DNA of 64,000 nt from an uncultured Actinomycetes bacterium (lineage in GTDB: Bacteria; Actinomycetota; Actinomycetes; S36-B12), in NCBI GenBank assembly GCA_903960135.1, contig CAJBZP010000069.1, forward strand, positions 1,708 to 65,707, read 5' to 3'. Shown in pieces: positions 2,907 to 43,397 of the stretch; position 1 is the stretch's first letter; every line of letters starts with the position of its first letter. The notes beneath the pieces are model-generated. The model searched no databases. It was not told the origin of the DNA and was given only the letters and a program-made list of their open reading frames with translations. The position numbers and the translations under genes are program-made.

Positions 2907-4538
2907 ATGTCGCCGCCGGTCACCTCAGCAACTGGGGCTGATAAAGCTTTTTATCTGACGACACCTATCTATTACGTAAATGACGCGCCACATATCGGGC
3001 ATGCCTATACGACCACCGCCGGTGATGTGCTGACCCGTTGGCACCGCCAGCGCGGGGAACAGGTTTGGTTCCTCACCGGCGTTGATGAGCACGGCACCAA
3101 AGTGCAGCGGGCCGCCGACGCTGGGGGCGTGACCCCGCAGCAGTGGGTCGATAATTTGGTCGAGAAGGAGTGGCTGCCGGTACTCGAGACTGTCGACGCC
3201 GCTAATGACGACTTCATCCGCACCACTGAGCCGCGCCACGCGGAACGGGCGCAGCGGTTCTGGGAGCAGGTGCGCGAGCACGGGTTCGTCTACTCGGCAC
3301 CTTATGAGGGCCCCTACTGCGTTGGTTGCGAGGAGTTCAAGTTTGCGGCCGACCTAGTGCCCGGGACCGGTGAGTATGAAGGCCAACTGATTTGTCCGGT
3401 GCACGGGCGCCCCTGTGAGCAATTACAAGAAGAGAACTGGTTCTTTCAGTTGTCGGCATTCACCGAGCGGCTCATCGAGCACTACGAAGCTAATCCAGAT
3501 GCAATCCAACCGCGCAGTGCCTACAACGAGGTGATGTCTTTCATTCGAGGTGGATTAGTAGATATTTCAATGTCTCGCTCGAGTGTTTCGTGGGGTATCC
3601 CGGTGCCGTGGGAGACCGGCCAAGTCATCTACGTCTGGTTCGATGCACTGTTGAATTACGCGACCGCTGTGGGCTACGGCACTGACCCTTCATCACCTGA
3701 AGGTGAGCTGTACGCCAATACTTGGCCCGCTGACGTGCACCTAGTTGGTAAAGACATCCTGCGCTTCCACGCCGTCTATTGGCCGGCGATGTTGATGGCC
3801 GCTGGCGAGCCGCTACCGCGCAAGGTCTTTGCGCATGGCTGGCTGCTAGTTGGCGGCGAGAAGATGTCCAAGAGCAAGTTAACCGGGATTGCACCAAGTG
3901 AGATCATCGACCACTTCGGTTCCGATGCCTTTCGGTACTACTTCCTGCGCGCCATCGCCTTTGGCCAAGACGGCTCGTTTTCCTGGGAAGATATGTCGGC
4001 TCGGTACACCGCCGAGCTGGCAAATGGTCTGGGCAACCTAGCCGCACGCGCTACGGCCATGGTGGTGCGTTACTGCGAGGGTATCTTGCCGGCCGCCACG
4101 GCTGATGGTGCCGCCGAGGAGGGCCTGCAGGCGCTGCTGGTGTCGACGGCGGCTAACGCCGATGCCGCGATGGTGGCACTGGACTTCTCGACCGGCATCA
4201 CGGCGGTCAAGGATTTCATCGAGGCGGTCAACGGGTATGTCACCGAGCAGGAGCCTTGGGTATTGGCTAAGGATCCTGCTAATCGCGAGCGCCTTGAGAC
4301 CGTTCTCTACACCATTTGCGAATCGCTGCGCGCTATCGCGGTGCTCTACAACCCCTTGATGCCAAAGACCATGCAGGATTTGTGGGGACAACTAGGCGCC
4401 AATGGGTCAGGAGCAACTGGGCTCGGGCCATTGGCAGCGCAGCGAATTGCTGGTGTTGCCGTTTGGGGGCAACTACCAGTGGGCTCGAGCGTGACTAAGG
4501 GCGATTCACTCTTTCCGCGTCTGGAAGAAACCACCTGA
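2907..4538 (+). CDS. metG: methionine--tRNA ligase
   Basis: Class I aaRS signatures: PHIGHAYT (HIGH) and KMSKSKL (KMSKS). Length is 543 aa. Confidence 0.95.
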   Translation: MSPPVTSATGADKAFYLTTPIYYVNDAPHIGHAYTTTAGDVLTRWHRQRGEQVWFLTGVDEHGTKVQRAADAGGVTPQQWVDNLVEKEWLPVLETVDAANDDFIRTTEPRHAERAQRFWEQVREHGFVYSAPYEGPYCVGCEEFKFAADLVPGTGEYEGQLICPVHGRPCEQLQEENWFFQLSAFTERLIEHYEANPDAIQPRSAYNEVMSFIRGGLVDISMSRSSVSWGIPVPWETGQVIYVWFDALLNYATAVGYGTDPSSPEGELYANTWPADVHLVGKDILRFHAVYWPAMLMAAGEPLPRKVFAHGWLLVGGEKMSKSKLTGIAPSEIIDHFGSDAFRYYFLRAIAFGQDGSFSWEDMSARYTAELANGLGNLAARATAMVVRYCEGILPAATADGAAEEGLQALLVSTAANADAAMVALDFSTGITAVKDFIEAVNGYVTEQEPWVLAKDPANRERLETVLYTICESLRAIAVLYNPLMPKTMQDLWGQLGANGSGATGLGPLAAQRIAGVAVWGQLPVGSSVTKGDSLFPRLEETT

Positions 4539-4552
4539 GCACGGGATTTGCT

Positions 4553-5395
4553 TTGCCCGAGGTGGCACCGGAGCCGTTGCTGGCACCGGTGATCGACTCC
4601 CATTGCCACCTTGATGTGCGCGATCGGGCGCTGCACGGTGAAACCAGGCCCGATCCAGGCGAGATGCTGAAGCTCGCGGCTGCTGTCGGAGTCACCAAGG
4701 TCGTGCAAATCGGCTGCGATGTCGAATCGGCGAGGTGGTCGGTCGAGATGGCAGCACACCACCCGGAAGTCATCGTCGGAGTTGCCTTGCACCCGAATGA
4801 AGCGCCACGTATTTTTGCGGACCATGGCCAAGGCGGCCTTGACGATGCATATGCGGCGATTGCGGAGTTGGCCACGCATGACATTGTTCGTGCGGTAGGG
4901 GAGACCGGCCTGGACTATTACCGCACCGAGGGGGAATTGCGATCGGTGCAGCAGGAGTCTTTCCGGTGGCACATTAATTTGGCCAAAGAGTTGAACAAGG
5001 CCTTGGTTATCCACGATCGTGATTCACATGAGGATGTTATTGCGGTACTCGAGTCCGAAGGTGCGCCGACGAAAGTAGTTTTCCACTGCTTTAGCGGCGA
5101 TTCGAAAATGGCGGGCTACTGTGCTGAACGTGGCTGGTTTATGTCCTTTGCCGGTGTGATTACATTCAAGAACGCAGACAGTTTGCGAGCAGCACTGCAG
5201 GTGGTGCCCGATGACTTGGTCCTGGTCGAGACGGATTCGCCTTATCTGACTCCCGTGCCTTACCGAGGAAAAGCGAATGGGTCATACCTGATGCCCTTGA
5301 CCGTGCGCCGGATGGCTGAGGTCCGCGGTGTTGCCGAAGCCGAGTTGGCCACCTGTCTGTGGGACAACACTCAACGGGTCTTCGGTGCCTGGTAG
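4553..5395 (+). CDS. tatD: TatD-family metal-dependent DNase/hydrolase
   Basis: DSHCHLD metal-binding start motif, then [10 protein letters not shown] and [12 protein letters not shown] start. Confidence 0.9.
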
Positions 5396-6236
5396 CGATC
5401 TGCTCGGTGCGCGCGAGATTCGCGAACTTGCGGCGCACCTAGGGATCCGGCCAACCAAGAAACTTGGCCAGAACTTCGTCATCGATCCCAATACGGTGCA
5501 GCGAATTGTGCGGTTGGCGGGGATCACCGCTACTTCGCAGGTGCTAGAAGTTGGGCCCGGACTGGGTAGCTTGACGCTCGCGCTACTTGAGCCCGGTGCC
5601 CGGGTTGTTGCGATTGAGATCGACCCGTTGCTCGCGGAGCAATTGCCGGTTACCGTGCAAGCGCACTTGCCCGAGCGGGCTGATGCATTGACCGTGATAC
5701 ACGCAGATGCTCTAACCGTGCAGGATCTCGGTTTCGAGCCCGATGCGCTGGTCGCGAACTTGCCCTACAACGTTTCGGTGCCGGTGCTACTGCAATTACT
5801 TAGCACCCTGCCATCTTTGCGTTCGGTTCTAGTGATGGTGCAAAAGGAGGTTGCCGATCGCTTGGTCGCCGGCCCCGGTTCGCGCACCTACGGGGTGCCG
5901 AGTGTCAAAGTCCGCTGGTTCGGCGACCCGCAGGCGGCGGGTAGCGTCAGTCCTAAAGTGTTTTGGCCCGAGCCCAATGTGGATTCTGGGTTAGTGCGAA
6001 TCACCTGCCATGAGCCGCCGAAGTGTGCTGCGTCCAGGGCCGAGGTGTTCGCGGTCATCGACGCTGCATTCGCGCAGCGGCGTAAATCCCTGCGTGCGGC
6101 CCTTGGTCAATTCGCCGGCTCCCCGGCGCAGGCGCAATTGGCATTGGAGGCAGCCGGGATTGATCCGGGCGCCCGAGGGGAGTCACTTGATGTGGGTGAC
6201 TTCGCGCGGCTAGCCGATGCGTTCGGGCGAGATTAG
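5385..6236 (+). CDS. rsmA: 16S rRNA (adenine1518/1519-N6)-dimethyltransferase RsmA/KsgA
   Basis: Motifs [20 protein letters not shown] (SAM binding) and NLPYNVS. GTG 5385 chosen; it overlaps the tatD stop by 11 nt. The track ORF starts at 5328. Confidence 0.9.
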
Positions 6237-6281
6237 CTTGCTGAAGGTGCCCGAACCCAGCGCAACGCCTACCCTGAGGCC

Positions 6282-7211
6282 ATGACGACGGACCGGCAGG
6301 TAGGCGCATCTGTCACGGTCAGAGTGCCCGCGAAAGTCAATCTCCAACTGGGGGTGGGCCCAAAGCGGGCGGATGGGTACCACGAGTTGGCCACTGTGTT
6401 CCACGCGGTCAGTTTGTTTGACGATGTGCGCGCCCGCCAAGCGGAGCCCGGTACCGGTATCTCATTGACAATTTCGGGCGAGGGTGCCGGTGAGCTGCCA
6501 CTTGATGACACGAATTTGGCTTGGCGTGCGGTGCTGTTGCTGGCCGACCAAGCGGGCCTGCCAGCAGATGTTGAACTGCACTTGCATAAGGGCATCCCGG
6601 TTGCGGGGGGCATGGCTGGGGGCAGTGCAGATGCGGCGGGCGCGTTGCTGGCCTGCGAATCCCTTTGGCAACTGGGTATTGCACGTGAGGAGTTGATGGT
6701 TCTCGCAGCGCGTCTTGGCTCCGATGTGCCGTTCGCGTTGCACGGTGGTAACGCGATCGGCACCGGACGCGGCGAGCGATTACTCTCGGCCCTCGCGCGC
6801 GGCGCTTTCGAGTGGGTATTCGCCCTAGCGGAAAACGGCCTTTCCACTCCGGAGGTTTATGCAGAGTGTGATCGACTGCGGGGTGAAAGGCAGGCGCCAG
6901 CGCCGGTCGTATCACCGGAGATCATGCAGGCACTCCGAGCTGGGGATCCGTTGGCGTTAGGTGCGGCGTTGAGCAATGATCTGCAGCCAGCAGCCATCTC
7001 GCTGCGGCCGGTGCTCGCCCAGGTGCTTGAGGTCGGCGAGGGGTATGGCGCCCTCGGCGCCATTGTTTCTGGCAGTGGCCCGACATGTGCCTTCTTAGCG
7101 GTCGATGACGAACAGGCCCTCGACATTGCTGTTGGCCTGACGTCGGCTGGTGTGTGTCGAACGGTAAAGCGGGCCACCGGCGCTGTGCCAGGTGCGCGCA
7201 TAATTGCTTGA
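6282..7211 (+). CDS. ispE: 4-diphosphocytidyl-2-C-methyl-D-erythritol kinase
   Basis: GHMP kinase motifs: PAKVNLQLGVG, KGIPVAGGMAGGSADAAGAL and SGSGPTCF-like SGSGPTCAFL. Confidence 0.9.
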   Translation: MTTDRQVGASVTVRVPAKVNLQLGVGPKRADGYHELATVFHAVSLFDDVRARQAEPGTGISLTISGEGAGELPLDDTNLAWRAVLLLADQAGLPADVELHLHKGIPVAGGMAGGSADAAGALLACESLWQLGIAREELMVLAARLGSDVPFALHGGNAIGTGRGERLLSALARGAFEWVFALAENGLSTPEVYAECDRLRGERQAPAPVVSPEIMQALRAGDPLALGAALSNDLQPAAISLRPVLAQVLEVGEGYGALGAIVSGSGPTCAFLAVDDEQALDIAVGLTSAGVCRTVKRATGAVPGARIIA

Positions 7212-7246
7212 ACAACAACTCACCACTCAACGAAGGCGGTTGGGTG

Positions 7247-7747
7247 CTACGAGTCAAACTCATAGGACAGTGAGCGCAGCAGATTCGCCAGTTGCTGTTG
7301 TTCAGTTGGCGTCAGGCCCACGAGCAACTCACGTTCGCGGTCGAGTAGATCGGTTAAGGCCCCGTCCACGGCTTCTTGGCCGGCGGTCGTCAGCACTACC
7401 CGCACCCCGCGCCGATCACTTGGTTCGCGCTCGCGCCGGACGAAGCCGCGCGATTCCAGGCGGTCAACGCGATTGGTTACGGTGCCACTTGTGACCATGG
7501 CTTGGGCCCCGAGTTGGCCGGGCGAAAGTTCATAAGGGTCACCGGCTCGGCGCAAGGCGGCCAGCACATCGAACTCCCAGGGCTCTAGTTGGTGTTCTGT
7601 GAAGGCGGCCTTGCGGGCCAAGTCAAGGTGTCGGGCCAACCTAGAGACCCGCGATAAGACTGCCAAGGGCGAAATATCAAGGTCGGGGCGCTCCCGGTGC
7701 CAAGCGCTGACGAGGCGGTCGACTTCGTCGCTGCGCGGCCCCGGCAT
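7247..7747 (-). CDS. MarR-family transcriptional regulator
   Basis: Winged-HTH pattern (FDVLAALRRAG..., TSGTVTNRVDRLESRGFVRRE, DRRGVRVVLT). Last gene of the desaturase-TetR-MarR same-strand string. Confidence 0.85.
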   Translation of the reverse strand: MPGPRSDEVDRLVSAWHRERPDLDISPLAVLSRVSRLARHLDLARKAAFTEHQLEPWEFDVLAALRRAGDPYELSPGQLGAQAMVTSGTVTNRVDRLESRGFVRREREPSDRRGVRVVLTTAGQEAVDGALTDLLDRERELLVGLTPTEQQQLANLLRSLSYEFDS

Positions 7748-7786
7748 GGGCCAGAGCCTACGTCAAGAGTCTTGACGTCGAGATTC

Positions 7787-8488
7787 TTAGCGGTCGCGCT
7801 TGGTGAGCAGTCGGGGTTTGGCATCCAGGTTCTCCAGGCCACCCCAGGCCAGATTCACCAGGTGGGCGACGACTTCGTCCTTCCTCGGCTTGCGGACATC
7901 GAGCCACCATTGGCCGGTCAGTGCCACCATGCCCACCAGCATCTGGGAGTACATGGGGGCCAATTTGGTGTTGATGCGATGGGCGGCGAACTCGGCAGCA
8001 AGTAGATGTTCAACCTGGGCAGCGACATCGATGATCAAACTGGCAAATGAGCCGGTCTGTTGGGATACCGGTGAGTCGCGGACGAGAATCCGAAAGCCGT
8101 CCGGGTATTCATCGATGTAATCGAACAGCGCTAAGGCGGCTTGCTCCACGAGCACCCGCGCATTACCACCGGTCAAGGTGTCGGAGATCGTGGAAAGCAG
8201 GTGGTTCATCTCGCGATCCACGACCACCGCATATAGGCCTTCCTTGCCGCCGAAGTGCTCGTAGACAACCGGCTTGGAAACATCGGCTTTGGCGGCGATC
8301 TCCTCAACGGTGACCGCATCGAATCCCTTTTCGGCAAATAGCTTGCGTCCAACATCAAGTAGTTGCTCGCGGCGCTCTTGGCCGCTCATCCTTACTTTGT
8401 CGCGGGTACGCGGTGGCCGACGAACTTCACGTCGCGCGGCGACCGGGAGCGGGGTGACGTTATCGGCTTCGTTCATTATCGGCACCAT
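7787..8488 (-). CDS. TetR-family transcriptional regulator
   Basis: N-terminal TetR HTH (LLDVGRKLFAEKGFDAVTVEEIAAKADVSKPVVYEHFGGKEGLY). Its ATG lies 3 nt after the desaturase stop. Confidence 0.85.
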   Translation of the reverse strand: MVPIMNEADNVTPLPVAARREVRRPPRTRDKVRMSGQERREQLLDVGRKLFAEKGFDAVTVEEIAAKADVSKPVVYEHFGGKEGLYAVVVDREMNHLLSTISDTLTGGNARVLVEQAALALFDYIDEYPDGFRILVRDSPVSQQTGSFASLIIDVAAQVEHLLAAEFAAHRINTKLAPMYSQMLVGMVALTGQWWLDVRKPRKDEVVAHLVNLAWGGLENLDAKPRLLTKRDR

Positions 8489-8491
8489 TAG

Positions 8492-9514
8492 TCAGATGTT
8501 AGTCGCAGGTGCTACATAGCCGCGCACCCTGCGGCGCATTGCTGGGTCCTTTAGCTTGTTGGCAATGCGCTGCGGCTTAGGCCAGCGCACATCGGTGACC
8601 AGTTTCATTGACTCCATCATGCGAATCACCCGAGCACTCATATCGAGTTGGCCCTTAAGGACCCCGTGACGAGCCAAGGTGGGGTCGGCGTGGTGGAGGC
8701 TGTGCCAAGACTCACCAAATGACACGATGGCCAACCACGCGACATTCGATGAAAGATCCCGGTTGTTAAATGGTCGTGTACCGAACACGTGACAAATTGA
8801 GTTAATCGACCAAGTGACGTGATGCACGAGTGCGATGCGGATGAGCCCGCCCCAGAACAAGCCGGCGAGTGCGCCCATCCACGACCAAGTGATGAGTCCG
8901 CCAAGGAGGGCCGGCAGCAAGATTGAGGCTGTGAGGATTGCCGGGAAGAACTGCGAGATGCGGCGCAGATCCTTGTCCGCTGCAATATCGGGTGCGTACT
9001 GCTCGATGGGGGTTTGGGCTTCGTCAAATAGCCAACCGACGTGCGCGTAATAGAGGCCTTTTGCAACAGCGCGCTTTGAGGTGCCATAACGCCATGGGGA
9101 ATGCGGGTCGCCAACCTCGTCCGAGAACTGGTGGTGCTTGCGGTGGTCGGCAACCCATTGGTCAAGTGAGCCTTGGATCGCCATCGAACCGGCAATCGCC
9201 AACCCGATTTTTACCGCGCGTGGGGCCTTGAAGGCACCGTGGGTGAAATAACGGTGGTAGCCCAACGTGATGCCACCGGCGGTGATCGCCCAGAACAAAA
9301 GGATCAGGCCGGCATCTACCCAGGTGAAAAACCCGGCCCAGAAAATCGCCAGTGGGATCGCCGCGACCACCGCGAGCAATGGCAAGATGACAAAAACCGC
9401 GATGGTGATTTTCATGCCGTTATTGAGTAAGCCTTCGTCGGTTTGGCCGCGAACACCACTGTTGGTAAAAGTTGGCTTGACTGTGCTTAGCTCGAGTTCG
9501 GGCGTAATCGGCAC
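8492..9514 (-). CDS. membrane acyl-CoA (delta-9 type) fatty-acid desaturase
   Basis: Three His boxes (HRYFTH, HRKHHQFSD, HSLHHADP) and 4 TM segments. Start uncertain. GTG 9514 is preferred (GGGAG 4 nt upstream) and gives about 341 aa; ATG 9415 is the alternative. The track ORF start at 9688 overlaps the tRNA gene and is rejected. Confidence 0.8.
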   Translation of the reverse strand: MPITPELELSTVKPTFTNSGVRGQTDEGLLNNGMKITIAVFVILPLLAVVAAIPLAIFWAGFFTWVDAGLILLFWAITAGGITLGYHRYFTHGAFKAPRAVKIGLAIAGSMAIQGSLDQWVADHRKHHQFSDEVGDPHSPWRYGTSKRAVAKGLYYAHVGWLFDEAQTPIEQYAPDIAADKDLRRISQFFPAILTASILLPALLGGLITWSWMGALAGLFWGGLIRIALVHHVTWSINSICHVFGTRPFNNRDLSSNVAWLAIVSFGESWHSLHHADPTLARHGVLKGQLDMSARVIRMMESMKLVTDVRWPKPQRIANKLKDPAMRRRVRGYVAPATNI

Positions 9515-24436: not shown

Positions 24437-26926
24437 TTATCTACCCGTTACTTTTTCATTGGCTGGGTCATACAAAGGCCGAAGTGAAGTAGTGGCTGGC
24501 ACTTTGACCCCGGCTACCTCGACCTCCCAATTGCCACCGGTTAAGTAATCGGCGGTTATCGGCTCGCTTGCATCCACCATCGCCAGCCCAACAGCGCCGC
24601 CGAGGGTGTGACCGTAGCTACCAGCGCGCACATAGCCAGCTACCTCGCCATCGCGAATGAGGATCTCGCCGTGGTAGAGCAACGGCAGTGGGTCTAGGAG
24701 CTTGACCTGCACGAGGCGTCGGTGCAGTGGGCCTGAGGCCTTTTTCTTTTGAGCTGCCTCACGCCCAATGAAATCACTGGCCTTATCCCAAGCCACCGCG
24801 AAGCCAAGGCCGGCTTCCAGTACTGAATCGGTGTTGTCGATGTCATGGCCATAGTCGCGATAGCCCTTCTCCATTCGCAAACTGGCCAATGACTTGAGCC
24901 CGCAATGGACGAGTTGAACTTGTTCGCCGACCTCGCACAGGCGTTCATACGCGTGCACGGCTTGCTCTGTTGGGACATAAAGCTCGTATCCGAGCTCGCC
25001 CACATAGGTGATGCGCACACATAGGGCCCGGGCGAAGCCAAGGTCAATCTCGCGGGCGGTGCGATAGGGGAATGCACTGTTTGACATATCGGTTGTGGTC
25101 GCAGCCTGCAGGAGATCGCGGGCAAGGGGGCCGTGAATATTGAATTGGGCGTAGCCAGAGGTCACATCGGTCACGGTGGCGGCAAAGTCTTTGCCGTAGC
25201 GCGTTAACCATTGAAGGACTTGGCCGTGGGCGGTATCCGATGCCACCACGAAGAACTTATTGGCGCCAAGTTTGGTAACGGTCAGGTCGGCTTCGATGGT
25301 GCCGGACTCGTTGAGCCACTGGGTGTAGGTGATGACACCATCGGCGCCATTTACCGCGTTCGCTGATACGTAGTCCAAGAGCGCCCCGGCCTGCTCGCCT
25401 TGGACCAAGAATTTCGACATGAAACTCATGTCCATGAACCCGACGCCCTCGCGGATGGCGCGGTGCTCGTTTGCCCAAGACTCAAACCAGTGCGGGCGAC
25501 CCCAGGTGAGTTCACCCGTCTCCGGAATTTCGCCGGGTGGGGCATACCAATCGGCGCCCTCCCAGCCGCTGACATCGCGGAAATAAGCCCCGCGCTCTTT
25601 TAGCAGGTGATGTATTGGTGAGCGCTTGACACCGCGGGCGGTCGTGACAGTGCGGCCGGGGTAATGAGTTTGATAAACCAGGCCGAGAGTCTCAACGGTG
25701 CGCTCAGCACGGTACTGCGGGTTTCGCTGGTGGGGGAGTGCGCGATTGATATTGAAACCGGTGACATCAACATCGGGCTTGCCGTTAATGATCCAGTGCG
25801 CAACAACGCGGCCGACGCCTCCACCGGTGAGGATGCCGACCGAGTTCATGCCGGCGGCAACAAAATAGTTGCGGATGCCTGGTGCCTCGCCGATGAACGG
25901 CTGCAAGTCCGGGGTGAAGGATTCAGGGCCGCAGAAGAACTTTCGGATCCCAGCTTCAAGGGAGATTGGCACGCGTTGCATGGCCCGTTCTAGGTATGGG
26001 CCCATGCGATCCCAGTCCGGCGGGATTTCACCAAAGGAAAAGTCCTGCGGAATTGAATCTACATTCCACGGTGCGCAAACGGGTTCGAAGAGGCCGATCA
26101 TCAAGCCGCCACCCTCCTCGCGGTAGTAGGCGTGCGCGGATGGGTCCTCGAATACTGGAAGTGTCGAGTCGATACCTGCGATGGTGTCGGTGATCAAGTA
26201 GTAATGCTCGGCCGCCTGAAGTGGAATATTTACTCCGTGCCCTTGGCCGAATTGACGCGCCCACATCCCCGTGCAGTTGACCACATAGTCGCATTCAATG
26301 TCACCGAGTGCAGTTGTTACTGATTGCACTCGCTCGTCGGTCACCTTCACCCCCGTTGCGGTGACTTCTTCAAAAATTTGCACCCCATTCGCGCGGGCCC
26401 CTTTGGCCAACGCCATCGTGACGTCAACCGGGTTTACCCGCCCGTCATCTGGTACATAGAAGCCGGCTTCTAGCCCGGTGATGTCGGCGATCGGAAATCG
26501 CTCGGCAATCTCGCGCGGGCTAATTTCATGGACTTCGAGCCCGCAGAGCCGATTGAATGCGGCCACCCGTCGGTATTCCTCGAGGCGGTCCTTGTCGGCC
26601 GCAGCTTCGATGAAGCCGGCGGGGTTGAATCCGGTGGCTTGGCCGGTCTTGGCTTCCAGGTCGCGATAAAGCTGGCGGGTATAAAGGCGCATCTGCATTG
26701 AAGTCTCCGAGAAGGAGCCAAAACAGGTCATCAGCCCAGCGGCATGCCACGTGGTGCCGGAGGTCAGTTTGTCGCGCTCGAGCAAAACTACGTCGGTCCA
26801 GCCGGCCTCGGCCAGGTGGTAGGCCACCGAGCAGCCGATGACCCCGCCGCCGATGATCACTACTCGGGCGCGGCTGGGCAGCGTGGTTTTGGACGGGACG
26901 GACATGGGCATAGCGCAGGATTGCAC
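24437..26926 (-). CDS. FAD-dependent dimethylglycine/sarcosine dehydrogenase-family oxidoreductase with C-terminal GcvT (aminomethyltransferase) fold
   Basis: N-terminal dinucleotide fold VVIIGGGVIGCSVAYHLA. Length about 820 aa. C-terminal folate-binding GcvT-like region (ITYVGELGYELYVP). Start ambiguous (26926, 26911 or 26905). Confidence 0.85.
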   Translation of the reverse strand: MQSCAMPMSVPSKTTLPSRARVVIIGGGVIGCSVAYHLAEAGWTDVVLLERDKLTSGTTWHAAGLMTCFGSFSETSMQMRLYTRQLYRDLEAKTGQATGFNPAGFIEAAADKDRLEEYRRVAAFNRLCGLEVHEISPREIAERFPIADITGLEAGFYVPDDGRVNPVDVTMALAKGARANGVQIFEEVTATGVKVTDERVQSVTTALGDIECDYVVNCTGMWARQFGQGHGVNIPLQAAEHYYLITDTIAGIDSTLPVFEDPSAHAYYREEGGGLMIGLFEPVCAPWNVDSIPQDFSFGEIPPDWDRMGPYLERAMQRVPISLEAGIRKFFCGPESFTPDLQPFIGEAPGIRNYFVAAGMNSVGILTGGGVGRVVAHWIINGKPDVDVTGFNINRALPHQRNPQYRAERTVETLGLVYQTHYPGRTVTTARGVKRSPIHHLLKERGAYFRDVSGWEGADWYAPPGEIPETGELTWGRPHWFESWANEHRAIREGVGFMDMSFMSKFLVQGEQAGALLDYVSANAVNGADGVITYTQWLNESGTIEADLTVTKLGANKFFVVASDTAHGQVLQWLTRYGKDFAATVTDVTSGYAQFNIHGPLARDLLQAATTTDMSNSAFPYRTAREIDLGFARALCVRITYVGELGYELYVPTEQAVHAYERLCEVGEQVQLVHCGLKSLASLRMEKGYRDYGHDIDNTDSVLEAGLGFAVAWDKASDFIGREAAQKKKASGPLHRRLVQVKLLDPLPLLYHGEILIRDGEVAGYVRAGSYGHTLGGAVGLAMVDASEPITADYLTGGNWEVEVAGVKVPATTSLRPLYDPANEKVTGR

Positions 26927-34356: not shown

Positions 34357-35133
34357 CTAGGAGGTAATGGGTGGGTCGGCCGGGTGGGGGGTCAAGCCGG
34401 TGGTATCGGTCACGGTCAGCAGCAGCTTTTCCCGGGCCGCGCAAAGGCGCGCCAACTCCTCGTAGGCGGGTAAGCCGATTAGGGCAACGATCTCATTGCG
34501 CGATGAGAGATAAACCGGCTCGGTGCCGATATGTGCCTCGGTATTACTGCTGCAATACCAATCCAGATCATGGCCGCCAGCGCCCCATGCGCGGCGGTCA
34601 TATTCACCTAGAACCACCACCAAGCGCTCAACTTCGTCCTCGTACTTCTTGTTCTCATAGGTCCGGCGAAGGGGCAGCTGCCAGCACACCTCGGGTTTGG
34701 TCTCGACAAATGAGATGCCCTCGCGGTCGGCCAGGTGGTGCAGGGCGCAGCCGTAGCCACCGGCGAAATCCTTTTGATTGTGGAAGATGCAGGCCCCGTT
34801 GTGCACGGCGGTCTTGCGGGCGCCGTCCTCCTTTTCGATCCAGCCCTTCTTCTGGCCGATCTTGATGTTCTGCCACATGTCACCATCAAGTTTTTCGACC
34901 CAGCGGGCGACCCGCTTTTCGTCCTTCTTCTCGGAGAAGTGCGCGCCCAGCGTGCAGCAGCCGGCGTCCGGGGCATCGGCGTAGATGCCCTTGCAGCCCC
35001 GGCCGAAAATACAGGTCCAACGCGAGGTCAGCCACGTCAAGTCAGCGCGAATCAACTGGTCTTCGTCCGCGGGATCGATGAACTCGACCCACTGGCGTGG
35101 AAAATCTAAGGCGACCTCAGGCATGTAGCACAC
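34357..35133 (-). CDS. conserved actinobacterial Cys-rich protein (Rv0495c-like, possibly DUF3027)
   Basis: About 255 aa with a Cys cluster ([11 protein letters not shown] ... DAGCC ... GACIF ... YGCALHH ... EVCWQLP). It is divergent from ppx, as remembered for Rv0495c/Rv0496. Start is GTG 35133 or ATG 35124. Confidence 0.7.
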
Positions 35134-39261: not shown

Positions 39262-39885
39262 GTGCCCGGTACGGTGCAGGGTGTGGCCGAACCCGATCTG
39301 ACTTCCTCGATCTTGGGCGCGGCGCGCTTAGTGCTCGGCGCCCGCGGTTATGCAAACACCACGATTAAAACAGTGGCGGCGGCGGCCGGTGTGGCCCCTG
39401 GTGTCGTCCGATCCCTCTACTCCAACAAGGAGCAATTACTCGCCGCCGCGCTACGGGTGCCATTTGACCCGGCTGGCAGTATTCCGAAGTTAATCGCGCC
39501 CGGCTTGGACGGCATGGGTGAGCGGTTGGTGCGGCTGACCTTGCAACTCAGTAGCGATGAGCAGGTGCGTAAGGATGCCACCAATTTGATGCAGTCGGCC
39601 CGCACATCTACGAGCATTGATCAATTACGCGGCCTGACCGAATTCCTGCAGGCCACTTTGCTCGATCGGTTAGTGGAGGCCATGGGCGTGCCCGATGCCC
39701 GGATGCGCGGCGCCTTGATCACCGCGTACTTAGCCGGGGTGGCCGCAACCCGTTCAATGTTGAATATTGAACCACTGGCCTCCGCGACCGACGAGGTGAT
39801 CGTGGCGCTGGTGGCACCGACCATTCAGCGACTCCTTGACCCAACACAGCCACTGCCTACCAAGGATGCACCCGGGAAGTCATAA
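39262..39885 (+). CDS. TetR-family transcriptional regulator
   Basis: N-terminal HTH (ARGYANTTIKTVAAAAGVAPGVVRSLYSNKEQLL). Confidence 0.8.
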   Translation: MPGTVQGVAEPDLTSSILGAARLVLGARGYANTTIKTVAAAAGVAPGVVRSLYSNKEQLLAAALRVPFDPAGSIPKLIAPGLDGMGERLVRLTLQLSSDEQVRKDATNLMQSARTSTSIDQLRGLTEFLQATLLDRLVEAMGVPDARMRGALITAYLAGVAATRSMLNIEPLASATDEVIVALVAPTIQRLLDPTQPLPTKDAPGKS

Positions 39886-39894
39886 GGTCATCTG

Positions 39895-40821
39895 GTGCCA
39901 TTAGTTCGTAATATCTTCGAGCAGATCGCCAAGAACGAGGCCATCGGCTCCTTCATCGCCGGTACGCCAATCGGGCGCGAGTTCGTGCACCGGGTTGCGG
40001 GGGGTGAACAGGTTGAAGATGTGATCGAAGCAGCACAACTTCTGGCCGATGCGGGGCGGCTAATCAGCCTTGAGCGTGCGGTGAGCGGCGAACTCGCCGA
40101 GGCCGAAAGTGCCTTGGTGTTCGCTGATTACGCGATGGCCGTGAGTGCCCTGGCTTCGGCATCACTGGCCCGCATCTCCGAGGTGGCGCTCCTGCCGGAG
40201 TTCCTCCTAGGTGGGCGCCCTCGAATCGGGCCCTTAAAGGACTTGTGCGCGCAGGCGCAGATCAGTCAAGTAAGTGTCATGATCGGCATGGGGCCTGACG
40301 ATTTGGTCGATGCCACGCTCGAACTGGTAACCGGCCTACGCGCCGAAGGTTTCGAGGTAGGGATTACCTTGCAAGCTGTTCTCCGGCGAACCGAGGGCGA
40401 TTGCGAAACCATCGGAGGTCGGGTGCGTCTGGTCAAGGGGGCGCCCAATTATCGAGGACCGGGTGGCGATGAATCACTCGAGCGCTTTGGCCAAGCTATC
40501 GAGGTGGACAAGTCCTATATCCGTTGCGCGAAAGCTTTACTGCGGACGACCGCTGAGCCAGGTTTTGCCACCCACGACCCCCGCCTGATTGAGATAATCC
40601 AGACGCTCACCGCCCGGCTGCACCGCGAAAAGGGCAGCTACGAGTTCGCCATGTACTACGGCCGAAGCACCGGGTTGCAGCAGCGCTTGACCGATGCCGG
40701 TGAGGCGGTTCGGGTTTATATCCCGTTTGGGCCGGGGTGGTTTGGCCGGCTCGTGGGAGGCTTGGCCGAAAGACCGACCGGCCTCGTGCCGGCGATCAGG
40801 TCGCTGCTCCCAGGTGCCTGA
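39895..40821 (+). CDS. proline dehydrogenase-family protein, divergent (PRODH-like)
   Basis: PRODH beta8-alpha8 barrel hallmarks are present: VRLVKGA, FATHDPRLIE and the YIPFGPGWFGRLVGGLAERP C-terminus. The conserved RR pair reads GG, KGAY reads KGAP, and EFQxLxGM reads EFAMYYGR. Confidence 0.7.
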   Translation: MPLVRNIFEQIAKNEAIGSFIAGTPIGREFVHRVAGGEQVEDVIEAAQLLADAGRLISLERAVSGELAEAESALVFADYAMAVSALASASLARISEVALLPEFLLGGRPRIGPLKDLCAQAQISQVSVMIGMGPDDLVDATLELVTGLRAEGFEVGITLQAVLRRTEGDCETIGGRVRLVKGAPNYRGPGGDESLERFGQAIEVDKSYIRCAKALLRTTAEPGFATHDPRLIEIIQTLTARLHREKGSYEFAMYYGRSTGLQQRLTDAGEAVRVYIPFGPGWFGRLVGGLAERPTGLVPAIRSLLPGA

Positions 40822-40846
40822 TCTCGGACTAGTGAAGGGAATAGGC

Positions 40847-41644
40847 GTGACACGCATCGCGGTGGTAGGCGGCGGAGTGATGGGCGAGGCGCTGATCGTC
40901 GGCTTGCAGCGGCGGTTGACTCCGGTCCCCTCGATAGTGGTTGCGGAGAAGCGGGAGGATCGAGGTGCCGATCTTGCGATGCGATTTGGTGTTCAAATCG
41001 CGGCTCCGGCGGCAGCCGTTGCGGGCGCGGATGTCGTGATCATCGTGGTAAAGCCGCAGGATTTTAGATCGGTGGTTGACCAGATCGCAGCGGATGTGCC
41101 TGACGGAGCATTGGTCATTTCAATTGCTGCCGGCATCACAACCTCGTCAATAGAAGAAGCCATTCCGCATGCCAATGTGGTTCGTGCGATGCCAAATACT
41201 CCTGCGCGGCTAGAGCTCGGGGTAACGGGCGTCAGCGCCGGCGCAAATTGTGATAGAGCAGCATTCGCTCGCGCTGAGCAACTGTTGGCATCGGTGGGCA
41301 CGGTGATTTCGGTGCCAGAGTCACTGCAGGATGCAATAACGGCGGTCTCTGGAAGCGGACCTGCTTATGTCTTCTTTCTCGCGGAGGCGATGATGGCTGG
41401 TGCCATGGCCGTTGGGCTCAGTACGGCCGATGCGCGTAACGCGGTGGTAAATACCTTGTTGGGTGCCGCCCACCTGCTGGACGTCAGTGGTGAAGAACCG
41501 GCCGCTCTACGTGCCATGGTGACTTCCCCTGGCGGCACCACGGCTGCCGCCATCGCGGTCTTGGAGAAAAATGAAACCCTTGATTCATTCGTTGCCGCAA
41601 TCGTTGCTGCACGGGATCGCAGCCGGGAGCTATCTGCATCGTGA
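40847..41644 (+). CDS. proC: pyrroline-5-carboxylate reductase
   Basis: Motifs IAVVGGGVMGEAL (Rossmann), VRAMPNTPA, SGSGPAYVFF and VTSPGGTTAAA. GTG 40847 after GAAGGGA; the track ORF starts at 40694. Confidence 0.9.
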   Translation: MTRIAVVGGGVMGEALIVGLQRRLTPVPSIVVAEKREDRGADLAMRFGVQIAAPAAAVAGADVVIIVVKPQDFRSVVDQIAADVPDGALVISIAAGITTSSIEEAIPHANVVRAMPNTPARLELGVTGVSAGANCDRAAFARAEQLLASVGTVISVPESLQDAITAVSGSGPAYVFFLAEAMMAGAMAVGLSTADARNAVVNTLLGAAHLLDVSGEEPAALRAMVTSPGGTTAAAIAVLEKNETLDSFVAAIVAARDRSRELSAS

Positions 41645-42846
41645 GTAAACGGGTCGGTGTGGTTTGGGATGAGCGGTTGGCAGAGTATGACTTCGGCCCC
41701 GGCCACCCGCTGACCCCGATTCGAGTGCAATTGGCGATGCGGCTAGCGGCGGATTTCGACCTATTAGTGCAGCCGAACGTGCAGTTGCTGAGCCCGGTCG
41801 ATCCGATTTCAATGGACGACTTATTACGGGTGCACGATGGGCAATACGTAGCCGCGGTAGTGCGGGCTTCTGAGACTGGCTTCGAGATCGGGGTCGGCGA
41901 TCGAGCCTGGGGTTTTGGTACCGCAGATGTTCCGGTATTCCCGGGCATGCACCAGGCCAGTGCTCGGGTGGCGGGCGCCACCTTGGCTGCAACGCAGGCG
42001 GTGCACGCCGGTTCGGTAGAGCATGCGGTCAACCTGGCGGGTGGCTTGCACCACGCCATGCCGGCCGCCGCATCAGGCTTTTGTGTCTACAACGATGTCG
42101 CAGCGTCGATCACCTGGTTACTGGACCAAGGGGTTGAGCGCATCGCATATGTGGATCTGGACGTCCATCACGGCGATGGGGTGCAGGCGATGTTCTGGGA
42201 TGACCCCAGAGTGCTAACCATGTCAATCCATGAGAGTCCGGCGAGCTTGTTTCCGGGCACCGGATGGCCAAGTGAAATCGGTGGCGCAGCTGCCCTTGGC
42301 ACCGCGGTCAATATTGCGCTCCCGGCGGGCACGGGTGACCAAGGCTGGCTGCGGGCCTTCCATGCGGTGGTGCCGCAGTTGCTCGAGGCCTTTGACCCAC
42401 AGGTAGTGATCAGCCAGCACGGAGTTGATGCACACGCTGATGACCCACTTGCGAATCTGAACCTGTCAATTGATGGCCAGCGCATGAGCTACGAGGCGAT
42501 GCACCGATGGGCCCATCGCTATGCGGCTGGCCGGTGGGTTGCGGTCGGTGGCGGGGGATACGAGTGGCTTGATGTCGTGCCGCGGGCCTGGACGCACCTC
42601 ATTGCCGAGCTCGGTGGCCACCCGATCGACCCAGGGGCCGAACTCCCGGAGGCATTTCGAGCGTATGTCGAAGCGACGCACGGGCGGTCGGCGCCGGTGC
42701 GGATGACCGATGGGCGCACCCCGTGGCCAAAGTCCTTCGAGGAGGGTTTTAACCCAAATGACGAGGTGGACCAAGCGATAAGCCTTACCAGGGAACTGAT
42801 TTTCCCGATCTGGGGGCTGGCGCTGGAGTCTGATAACTGGCTGTGA
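41641..42846 (+). CDS. histone-deacetylase-family protein (acetoin utilisation AcuC-like / protein or polyamine deacetylase)
   Basis: Class I/II HDAC motifs: HPLTPIR, GGLHHA, DLDVHHGDG, SIHE and GGGGY. The GTG start overlaps the proC stop (GTGA). Confidence 0.88.
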   Translation: MSKRVGVVWDERLAEYDFGPGHPLTPIRVQLAMRLAADFDLLVQPNVQLLSPVDPISMDDLLRVHDGQYVAAVVRASETGFEIGVGDRAWGFGTADVPVFPGMHQASARVAGATLAATQAVHAGSVEHAVNLAGGLHHAMPAAASGFCVYNDVAASITWLLDQGVERIAYVDLDVHHGDGVQAMFWDDPRVLTMSIHESPASLFPGTGWPSEIGGAAALGTAVNIALPAGTGDQGWLRAFHAVVPQLLEAFDPQVVISQHGVDAHADDPLANLNLSIDGQRMSYEAMHRWAHRYAAGRWVAVGGGGYEWLDVVPRAWTHLIAELGGHPIDPGAELPEAFRAYVEATHGRSAPVRMTDGRTPWPKSFEEGFNPNDEVDQAISLTRELIFPIWGLALESDNWL

Positions 42847-43006: not shown

Positions 43007-43213
43007 ATGACCAACAGCCTTGAGCGCGGCTTTGCCGAGGTTCGCTTCCTAACCGTCGCCGAGGTTGCCTCGGTGATGCGGGTTTCCAAGATGACCGTTT
43101 ATCGATTGGTTCATGGTGGTGAGCTCCCCGCGGTCCGCGTTGGTCGCTCCTTCAGGGTCCCAGAGCAGGCAGTACATGACTACCTTCGGGACTCCTTCGT
43201 CGAGACCGCCTGA
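43007..43213 (+). CDS. excisionase-family helix-turn-helix DNA-binding protein (Rv0500A-like)
   Basis: 68 aa with LTVAEVASVMRVSKMTVYRLVHGGELPAVRVGRSFRV. Conserved position after proC and before bS22 in actinobacteria. Confidence 0.85.
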   Translation: MTNSLERGFAEVRFLTVAEVASVMRVSKMTVYRLVHGGELPAVRVGRSFRVPEQAVHDYLRDSFVETA

Positions 43214-43298: not shown

Positions 43299-43397
43299 AT
43301 GGGCTCAGTGGTAAAGAAGCGCCGCAAGCGGATGGCAAAGAAGAAGCACCGCAAGCTGTTGCGTCGTACCCGAGTTCAGCGCCGCAATAAGGGCTAG
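43299..43397 (+). CDS. 30S ribosomal protein bS22 (32 aa)
   Basis: Not in the ORF track. Translation: [32 protein letters not shown]. It is near-identical in pattern to the mycobacterial bS22 peptide (Rv0500B-type). GAGGA lies 8 nt upstream of the ATG. Confidence 0.85.

Follow-up and report, generated by a model that had tools for sequence, protein, structure and literature searches.

Proline dehydrogenase (PRODH) is usually treated as a one-reaction family, with a substrate site that is conserved from bacteria to humans. In the characterised enzymes, an arginine pair and a lysine bind the carboxylate of proline, of tetrahydrofuroic acid and of pyrroline-5-carboxylate (P5C), and a box made of one leucine and two tyrosines packs on the proline ring; high conservation from bacteria to eukaryotes is described for the pair, the lysine, the box leucine, the ring-packing tyrosine and the gate glutamate (PMC12398946; PMC10651016). 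The first arginine of the pair forms the ion-pair gate with this glutamate (PMC12398946), and Lys110 of Mycobacterium tuberculosis PruB has been implicated in catalysis (PMC10537722). On the cofactor side (Thermus thermophilus numbering), T226 and H227 contact the phosphate of flavin mononucleotide (FMN), K187, held by D228, binds the phosphate of adenosine monophosphate (AMP), and H227 and K187 are strictly conserved across the family (PMC5335563). Here we analyse a stretch of 64,000 nucleotides from an uncultured Actinomycetes bacterium (contig CAJBZP010000069.1, positions 1,708 to 65,707; hereafter the window), in which an open reading frame (ORF) at positions 39895-40821 (+ strand) encodes a PRODH-like protein directly upstream of proC, the gene for P5C reductase.

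We found that this protein belongs to a monophyletic group, which we call the GG clade after the Gly-Gly that stands in place of the arginine pair. A clear pattern emerges, in which the residues of the cofactor site have been retained and those of the substrate site exchanged. We give a probability of about 0.5 to the reading that the protein is a flavoprotein whose pocket has been rebuilt for a new ligand, that it no longer oxidises proline, and that its gene is co-transcribed with a TetR-family regulator gene, proC and, usually, a gene of the HDAC family. An earlier note on this DNA, which offered a changed substrate or a non-catalytic role as its first reading, had named the right pair.

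Fold and closest relatives of the PRODH-like protein

The closest described systems are the monofunctional PRODHs of Thermus thermophilus (2g37, 2ekg) and Deinococcus radiodurans (4h6q, 4h6r), which the window protein resembles in length, in its (beta-alpha)8 barrel and in its N-terminal helical arm, and which provide its best sequence match (97.5 bits) and its best fold matches (template-modelling (TM) score 0.74-0.76). The motifs RLVKG, ATHD and xxAERP and the tyrosine Y275 are common to both sides. In contrast, identity to these enzymes is only about 30%, the residues K99, D133, E135, E65, Y190, Q252, L254, Y285, R288 and R289 of the T. thermophilus protein are all replaced, and helix 8 is shorter in the predicted model. 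Fold and flavin-binding motifs are also shared with the PRODH domain of PutA (Escherichia coli, Sinorhizobium meliloti, Geobacter sulfurreducens) and with M. tuberculosis PruB (Rv1188), from which the assignments of residues to functions used below were taken. PutA carries a P5C dehydrogenase in the same polypeptide and pruB lies beside pruA, whereas no P5C dehydrogenase gene was found in the window and the substrate residues of its PRODH-like protein are lost.

The ORF begins with GTG and encodes 308 amino acids. It scores 66.6 bits against the Pfam family Pro_dh (PF01619), above the cut-off of 27, and 116.6 bits against the NCBIfam model ProDh_Thermus (NF045947), below the equivalog cut-off of 500. 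Its motifs read RVRLVKGAP, FATHDPR, YEFAMYYGR and YIPFGPGWFGRLVGGLAERP. An AlphaFold 2 (AF2) model built on the clade alignment (predicted local distance difference test (pLDDT) 83.3, predicted TM score (pTM) 0.82) contains eight strand-helix units, and all 50 matches listed by Foldseek for this model are PRODH or PutA, the best being 2ekg (E = 2e-18, TM 0.76). The Pfam score, the model and the Foldseek matches thus agree with the overall PRODH barrel signature claimed from the letters in the earlier note. Neither the sequence alignments nor Foldseek revealed a solved structure closer than the canonical PRODH enzymes.

Two local features of the model deserve mention. Firstly, helix 8 is modelled as residues 282-288 and gives way to coil whose pLDDT is below 50 at residues 292-297, while in a control model of the canonical relative P0102 (pLDDT 89.3) it spans residues 283-293 and runs through the arginine pair to the glutamate. 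Helix 8 is therefore predicted to break at the Gly-Gly and to be truncated with respect to the canonical enzyme; as far as a prediction goes, this agrees with the Gly-Gly breaking the substrate-clamp helix. Secondly, a 6-residue insertion, RGPGGD (residues 187-192, 40453-40470), follows the KGA motif and lies within a low-confidence stretch of the model (about residues 181-200). Only the window protein and the copies 100% identical to it have this insertion, which is missing from the relatives that share 80-89% identity and are 302 amino acids long. The identical protein (P0001) is encoded on 42 metagenomic contigs, and its closest named relatives come from 'Candidatus Nanopelagicales' metagenome-assembled genomes (MAGs) from lakes. 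The host is thus a freshwater actinobacterium of Nanopelagicales type and no mycobacterium.

Flavin site and substrate site

We tabulated alignment columns over 195 non-redundant relatives and the 2ekg sequence, aligned with MAFFT. The native numbering of the T. thermophilus enzyme was obtained as the 2ekg chain index minus 20, which reproduces K99, D133, Y275, R288 and R289 as numbered in the literature.

The flavin-holding residues are kept. The codons of R178-L-V-K181 (40426-40437, +) correspond to T. thermophilus R184 to K187, with the arginine present in 98% and the lysine in 100% of the GG clade. The arginine of this RLVKG motif (T. thermophilus R184, E. coli R431) is, we assume, the residue that contacts the flavin N5 in PutA. 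The flavin phosphate-binding motif T226-H227-D228 (40570-40578, +) is likewise retained (T 100%, H 98%, D 100% of the clade). The phosphate-binding residues and the RLVKG arginine are thus all present in the window protein and 98-100% conserved in its clade. Y275, the ring-stacking tyrosine (E. coli Y540), is kept in 83% of the clade and E292 in 94%. Because these flavin-holding residues are kept, the protein very probably still binds FAD or FMN.

The substrate site, in contrast, has been replaced at nearly every position considered. In what follows, each canonical residue, or the I/V pair where so given, is present in 95% of the canonical sequences. In helix 8, R285-L-V-G288-G289 (40747-40761, +) places an arginine where the box tyrosine should be (R285 for Y285; R in 100% of the GG clade) and Gly-Gly where the clamp arginines should be (G288 for R288, G in 93%; G289 for R289, G in 100%). 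The carboxylate-binding pair known as R555/R556 in E. coli is therefore absent. The stretch A252-M-Y254-Y-G-R257 (40648-40665, +) replaces the glutamine, leucine and valine of the canonical EFQxLxG[IV] motif: A252 for Q252 (A in 89%), Y254 for L254 (Y/F in 98%), and R257, a new clade-invariant arginine, for V257 (R in 97%; canonical I/V). The catalytic or carboxylate-binding lysine (T. thermophilus K99, E. coli K329) has become L100 (40192-40194, +), a position occupied in the clade by F (42%), L (25%) or P (12%); K99 would be the counterpart of K110 in M. tuberculosis PruB. The canonical D-M-E motif reads G131-M-G133 (40285-40293, +), with G131 for D133 (G in 80% of the clade, G/A overall) and G133 for E135 (G in 83%). 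S64 stands for E65 (P/S/G in the clade), and P184 for Y190, the tyrosine of KGAY (H in 41% and R in 22% of the clade). Of the hydrophobic box (E. coli L513, Y540 and Y552), only Y540 is retained, as Y275, L513 being replaced by Y254 and Y552 by R285. Both partners of the Arg-Glu gate (S. meliloti R488-E225, T. thermophilus R288-E65) are gone, E65 having become S64 and R288 a glycine. Five of the changes are from large to small residues (D, E, Q, R and R to G or A).

An error of register for the Gly-Gly was considered and rejected. HMMER pairwise alignments to the T. thermophilus (2ekg, 5m42) and D. radiodurans (4h6q) enzymes all place G288-G289 opposite the arginine pair and the R285 codon stretch in the same register, and the flanking W282, L286, L290 and E292 are in register in all three independent alignments; the 195-sequence MAFFT alignment gives the same placement. 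Hence the pair does read Gly-Gly, as the earlier note had stated. Its other two observations at the active site were also real, and the changes turned out to reach further than the three positions listed there, since K99, D133, E135, E65 and Y285 are replaced as well. The sequence EFAMYYGR in place of EFQxLxGM is present, with A252, Y254 and R257 found clade-wide; KGAP in place of KGAY is present too and the tyrosine is replaced in the clade as well, but the proline is private to the window protein, where the clade has histidine or arginine.

We favour the following interpretation. A canonical monofunctional PRODH would have given rise to a neofunctionalised descendant that inherited its gene position. 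The (beta-alpha)8 barrel and the flavin-holding residues have been kept, with FAD or FMN very probably still bound, and the residues that position proline, namely the lysine on strand 2 of the predicted barrel, the arginine pair of helix 8, the gate glutamate and the leucine and one tyrosine of the box, have been given up. With the five changes to glycine or alanine and the appearance of the clade-invariant R285 and R257, the pocket would have been rebuilt. The proline:quinone oxidoreductase function would thereby be lost, L-proline being no longer oxidised at a useful rate, and a different ligand, probably anionic and bulkier, would be bound and perhaps oxidised. In a narrower form that we advance only tentatively, the protein could be a dehydrogenase that depends on flavin and whose substrate is no longer L-proline but another amine, larger and probably anionic, held by R285 and R257 in an enlarged pocket, and could form with ProC, and often with an HDAC-type amidohydrolase, a TetR-controlled two-enzyme module in abundant freshwater actinobacteria.

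The same residues could be read in another way: the clamp may have migrated to R285 and R257, leaving an enzyme that still acts on L-proline or hydroxyproline and could run a proline/P5C cycle with ProC. R285 lies one helical turn (3-4 residues) before the lost pair, on the same face of the helix, and R285 and R257 are conserved in 100% and 97% of the clade; moreover, the flavin residues are kept, as is Y275 in 83% of members, and the gene still stands beside proC. However, the proposed base or carboxylate lysine, the aspartate, the gate glutamate, the leucine and the KGAY tyrosine are replaced as well. R285 occupies the position of the ring-packing tyrosine, so that proline could not sit as it does in the known structures. 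In addition, helix 8 is truncated in the predicted model, and the NCBIfam equivalog score is less than a quarter of its cut-off. We therefore consider a migrated clamp improbable. The proline/P5C redox cycle with ProC, which the earlier note had put forward as its second reading, is for this protein unlikely as well, because the catalytic lysine, the Leu/Tyr box and the gate glutamate have been lost along with the arginine pair; it fits the canonical relatives better.

Extent of the GG clade and selection on it

The GG clade is marked by E60-R61, G131-x-G133, A252-x-[YF]254, R257, R285-L-V-G-G-L-A-E292 and a C-terminal LLPG, and by the location of the gene between a TetR gene or a xylose-isomerase-like gene and proC. 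The window protein carries every element of this signature, falls inside the monophyletic clade and has the gene order of the clade. A motif scan divided 120 listed matches into two groups, one with WFxRLVGGLAE, KG[AG][HR] and EFA[MF][YF][LM]G, the other canonical, with YLMRRLAE, KGAY and EFQMLYG, and 34-39% identical to the window protein. Neighbour joining placed all 129 sequences without the arginine pair (129/129) in one clade in which no Arg-Arg sequence is found, which shows that the common signature is not due to chance. The canonical actinobacterial sequences are its sister group, and no intermediate signature was seen in the tree set. The stem of the clade is long (0.48) and its root-to-tip distance is 1.67, against 1.05 for the canonical sequences, in what is a simple tree that long-branch effects could influence. 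R257 lies just after predicted strand 7 (residues 250-254 of the AF2 model).

The clade is small. A HMMER scan of 1.84 billion representatives returned 5085 PRODH-like clusters at E <= 1e-3, and among the 150 best of these representatives, clustered at 50% identity, only about 16 have the GG-type signature, indicating a restricted clade and not a broad family. The suggestion that this might be a conserved but unstudied family thus holds insofar as the alignment, the tree and the substitution rates define a distinct, conserved and uncharacterised clade, and fails as regards its breadth. No paper on such a PRODH variant was found in the literature searched, and the literature on proline metabolism in acI and other freshwater actinobacteria yielded nothing bearing on the PRODH-like gene.

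Other non-canonical Pro_dh-like lineages exist among the 50%-identity representatives, in which the arginine pair, the lysine or the leucine is replaced; they lie outside the GG clade and have different signatures. Many representatives in the range P0154-P0290 lack the canonical substrate residues. Some have W-W, W-L or W-G signatures in place of the box tyrosine and the arginine pair, among them P0173, P0177 and P0221, which are fusions of 775-793 amino acids, and some end in Y-W-W-L-E; others, such as P0164, P0168 and P0174, have arginine for the lysine and A-R or G-R for the arginine pair. These many signatures make the GG clade less singular and suggest that the PRODH family is functionally broader than assumed.

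We then considered selection. The ratio of nonsynonymous to synonymous substitutions (dN/dS), estimated by the Nei-Gojobori method in ten GG-clade pairs, in some of which dS is near saturation, is 0.06-0.15 in nine, the same range as for proC, the HDAC gene and the TetR gene in the same pairs and for pairs of canonical PRODH genes. The ratio of PRODH to ProC protein distances is 1.1-1.5 within the GG clade and 0.9-1.55 among canonical loci. Given the low dN/dS and a distance ratio like that of canonical loci, the gene is under purifying selection. All GG loci have an intact, full-length reading frame, except where it is cut by a contig end or has a shortened, degenerate C-terminus (L029 and L034, with G-N-Q instead of G-G-E), and ProC identity between members of the clade goes down to 50-60%. 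A pseudogene was rejected on the dN/dS values and the intact frames.

These data bear directly on the possibility that the gene is a relic, left over from proline catabolism and decaying in streamlined genomes, kept only through its position in an operon. The long stem and root-to-tip distance, the failure to find a P5C dehydrogenase in the window and the small genomes of the freshwater host lineages would all be in keeping with decay. Yet the frames are intact apart from the exceptions just given, dN/dS is that of the neighbouring housekeeping genes, residues specific to the clade are invariant, and the clade has persisted over deep divergences; the dN/dS values and distance ratios largely exclude a relic, which we hold to be very improbable. 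Constraint does look uneven within the clade, and L029, L034, P0159 and P0193 suggest secondary decay in some sublineages.

Gene order at the locus and across relatives

In the window, the PRODH-like ORF is preceded by a TetR-family gene (39262-39885, +; Pfam TetR_N and TetR_C_16) that ends 9 nt before its start, and followed by proC (40847-41644, +), whose GTG lies 25 nt past its stop codon, behind a GAAGGG-type ribosome-binding site. The span 39895-41644 thus holds two genes. ProC passes the equivalog level of TIGR00112 (248.2 bits, cut-off 196.75) and matches both F420_oxidored (PF03807, the NADP-binding N-domain) and P5CR_dimer (PF14748). Its stop codon overlaps the GTG start of an HDAC-family deacetylase gene (41641-42846, +; Pfam Hist_deacetyl, 275.9 bits) in the sequence GTGA. 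The order of these genes, the 25-nt spacing before proC and the GTGA overlap had been described in the earlier note, and the coordinates and family matches agree with it. The TetR gene is the first of a likely transcription unit made of TetR, PRODH-like, proC and HDAC genes, which are probably co-transcribed. A promoter and terminator scan found no terminator-like site between the TetR gene and the end of the HDAC gene; over the region as a whole it gave no more signals than shuffled controls, and none inside the operon.

To place this arrangement among relatives, the window proteins were mapped onto 80 loci of 15 kb each, taken from one contig survey. Nearly all share the array ppx, (P-type ATPase), xylose-isomerase-like TIM barrel, TetR, PRODH or PRODH-like, proC, (HDAC), epimerase, acyltransferase and HAD (minus strand). 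The PRODH slot is filled by the GG-type gene in L001-L029, L031 and L034, and by a canonical Arg-Arg (RR) PRODH in L030, L032-L033 and L035-L080 (Nocardioides, Marmoricola, Geodermatophilaceae, Longivirga), including the cultured species Nocardioides potassii, N. baculatus, N. pocheonensis, N. pini and Longivirga aurantiaca. These canonical proteins have the full signature D-x-E-K-D-E-Q-Y-Q-L-Y-Y-R-R-E, are 33-38% identical to the window protein, form its sister group in the tree and have a similarly short gap to proC (median 25 nt over 31 GG loci and 16 nt over 48 RR loci). The GG gene is therefore the positional orthologue of the canonical Arg-Arg PRODH, and its place beside proC is an ancestral trait that the variant did not introduce. 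The phylogeny accordingly yields the distinct clade that the earlier note had looked for, with a linkage to proC that canonical PRODHs have as well.

The two types of loci differ upstream. In 24 of 25 GG loci, the TetR stop codon lies -4 to +32 nt from the PRODH-like start, often as a 4-nt overlap (one estimate is -57), whereas in RR loci at least 707 nt separate TetR from PRODH. In the scanned Nocardioides-type loci this interval contains ABC-2 transporter genes, and in Longivirga-type loci a small basic protein without a Pfam match. We had considered that the 0.7-2 kb interval of canonical loci might hold a P5C dehydrogenase lost from the variants; this was rejected, as the transporter or the small basic protein is found there instead. 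Downstream, an HDAC gene starts within 200 nt after proC in 24 of 31 GG loci. No adjacent P5C dehydrogenase was found in either GG or RR loci, no aldehyde-dehydrogenase-family ORF is present among the scanned window ORFs of at least 398 amino acids, and neither a second PRODH nor a P5C dehydrogenase was found within the 64-kb window, in line with the remark in the earlier note that none is nearby.

L042, L058 and L080 are the RR loci closest to the window in the identity of neighbouring genes and the only ones with the P-type ATPase. Their PRODHs are nevertheless 35-36% identical to the window protein, no closer than those of Nocardioides (35%), an indication that change came in a burst on the stem of the GG clade.

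The gene order also bears on whether the protein catalyses anything. It might be a pseudoenzyme, a partner that binds flavin or senses a ligand, for instance by regulating or scaffolding ProC or by serving the TetR protein as a co-factor. Every residue tied to proline binding or catalysis has been lost, the proposed catalytic lysine included, the linkage to proC is tight and conserved, many loci have the 4-nt overlap with TetR, and Q163 is variable and K181 or H227 lost in some members. On the other hand, a scaffold free of cofactor would not need flavin-phosphate residues and an RLVKG arginine that are 98-100% conserved; the new invariant R285 in helix 8 and R257, both on pocket-forming elements, point to a specific ligand; and the proC linkage, being inherited from canonical enzymes, is no evidence of a new partnership. 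We regard a pseudoenzyme as rather unlikely, and retain a rebuilt pocket for a new ligand as the preferred interpretation.

Several observations weigh against that interpretation. Flavin binding is deduced from the retention of motifs, and Q163 (T. thermophilus numbering), invariant in canonical enzymes, varies within the GG clade (41% Pro, 38% Gln, 18% Ala), so that the environment of the isoalloxazine is not fully conserved. The outliers P0193 and P0159 lack K181 or H227. The L016/L018 pair has a dN/dS of 0.33 for the PRODH-like gene, and at deep divergence the rate of evolution relative to ProC is somewhat higher in the GG clade than in canonical PRODH. The last three points hint at weaker constraint.

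Every GG gene among the 80 loci comes from an uncultured Nanopelagicales-type, 'acI' or 'acSTL' MAG. Some of these MAGs (L010, L012, L013 and L027, also L028 and L031) were deposited as 'Bifidobacterium breve' or 'uncultured Bifidobacteriaceae', with a Nanopelagicales-type array; their neighbouring genes share 65-79% identity with the window's, and the deposited taxonomy is evidently wrong. In L009, a 2.0-Mb single-contig MAG, the P-type ATPase, the xylose-isomerase-like gene and proC each have split tblastn matches (e.g. 3325-5407, 5543-6327 and 7945-8731), which suggests frameshift errors of long-read assembly and not real pseudogenes.

Implications for annotation and for the PRODH family

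Databases label members of the GG clade 'proline dehydrogenase'. By fold and cofactor motif, the protein belongs to the Pfam Pro_dh superfamily, but judging from its residues it should not be filed as EC 1.5.5.2, since the arginine pair, the lysine, the Leu/Tyr box and the gate are missing and its equivalog score is too low. The clade offers a natural example of an active site that has turned over while the cofactor scaffold stayed fixed, in a gene that still occupies the place of its canonical ancestor and evolves under purifying selection. Should a new ligand be found, a reaction would be added to the PRODH family, and the automatic annotation on which metabolic models of freshwater Nanopelagicales-type lineages draw would have to be corrected; if a switch of substrate did occur, the reaction would be one not yet described in the PRODH superfamily.

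The canonical loci are of interest in their own right. The arrangement in which a canonical PRODH gene immediately precedes proC, and no P5C dehydrogenase gene adjoins them, is widespread among Actinomycetes; in L050, for example, the canonical PRODH lies at 7001-7924 and proC at 8068-8847. The first enzyme of the catabolic route is thus paired with the last enzyme of the biosynthetic one, which reverses it, and it is in these loci that a proline/P5C cycle would be worth testing.

Other features of the window

The G+C content is about 59%. Outside the locus, the 64-kb window contains housekeeping genes (metG, glmU-like, enolase, clpC-type, radA-type, hemD/cobA, resB and others), and no Rfam family reached its gathering threshold between 34 and 47 kb. 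The 600 nt that separate the HDAC gene from that of the epimerase hold two small ORFs, both also present in locus L081. The first (43007-43213, +) encodes a 68-amino-acid HTH_17 protein of excisionase type, presumably Rv0500A/BldC-like, and the second (43299-43397, +) a highly basic protein of 32 amino acids that matches Pfam COX24_C (bS22-type ribosomal protein). Upstream of ppx, a 258-amino-acid ORF (34357-35133, -) has no Pfam match at E <= 1e-4; the L081 gene at the same position is recorded as PF11307, the Rv0495c family. Taken together, the Rv0495c-family gene of L081, ppx, the xylose-isomerase-like gene, proC, the HTH_17 gene, the 32-amino-acid bS22-like ORF and the epimerase, acyltransferase and HAD genes resemble what we take to be the order of Rv0495c-Rv0505c in M. 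tuberculosis, where the earlier note had placed the counterpart of the PRODH-like gene at Rv0499; a full-text search found no paper mentioning Rv0499. Finally, about 13 kb from the PRODH-like gene, an ORF at 24437-26926 (-) encodes an 829-amino-acid fusion of a DAO-type FAD oxidoreductase and GCV_T folate-binding domains, as in dimethylglycine and sarcosine dehydrogenases, another type of flavoenzyme that oxidises secondary and tertiary amines.

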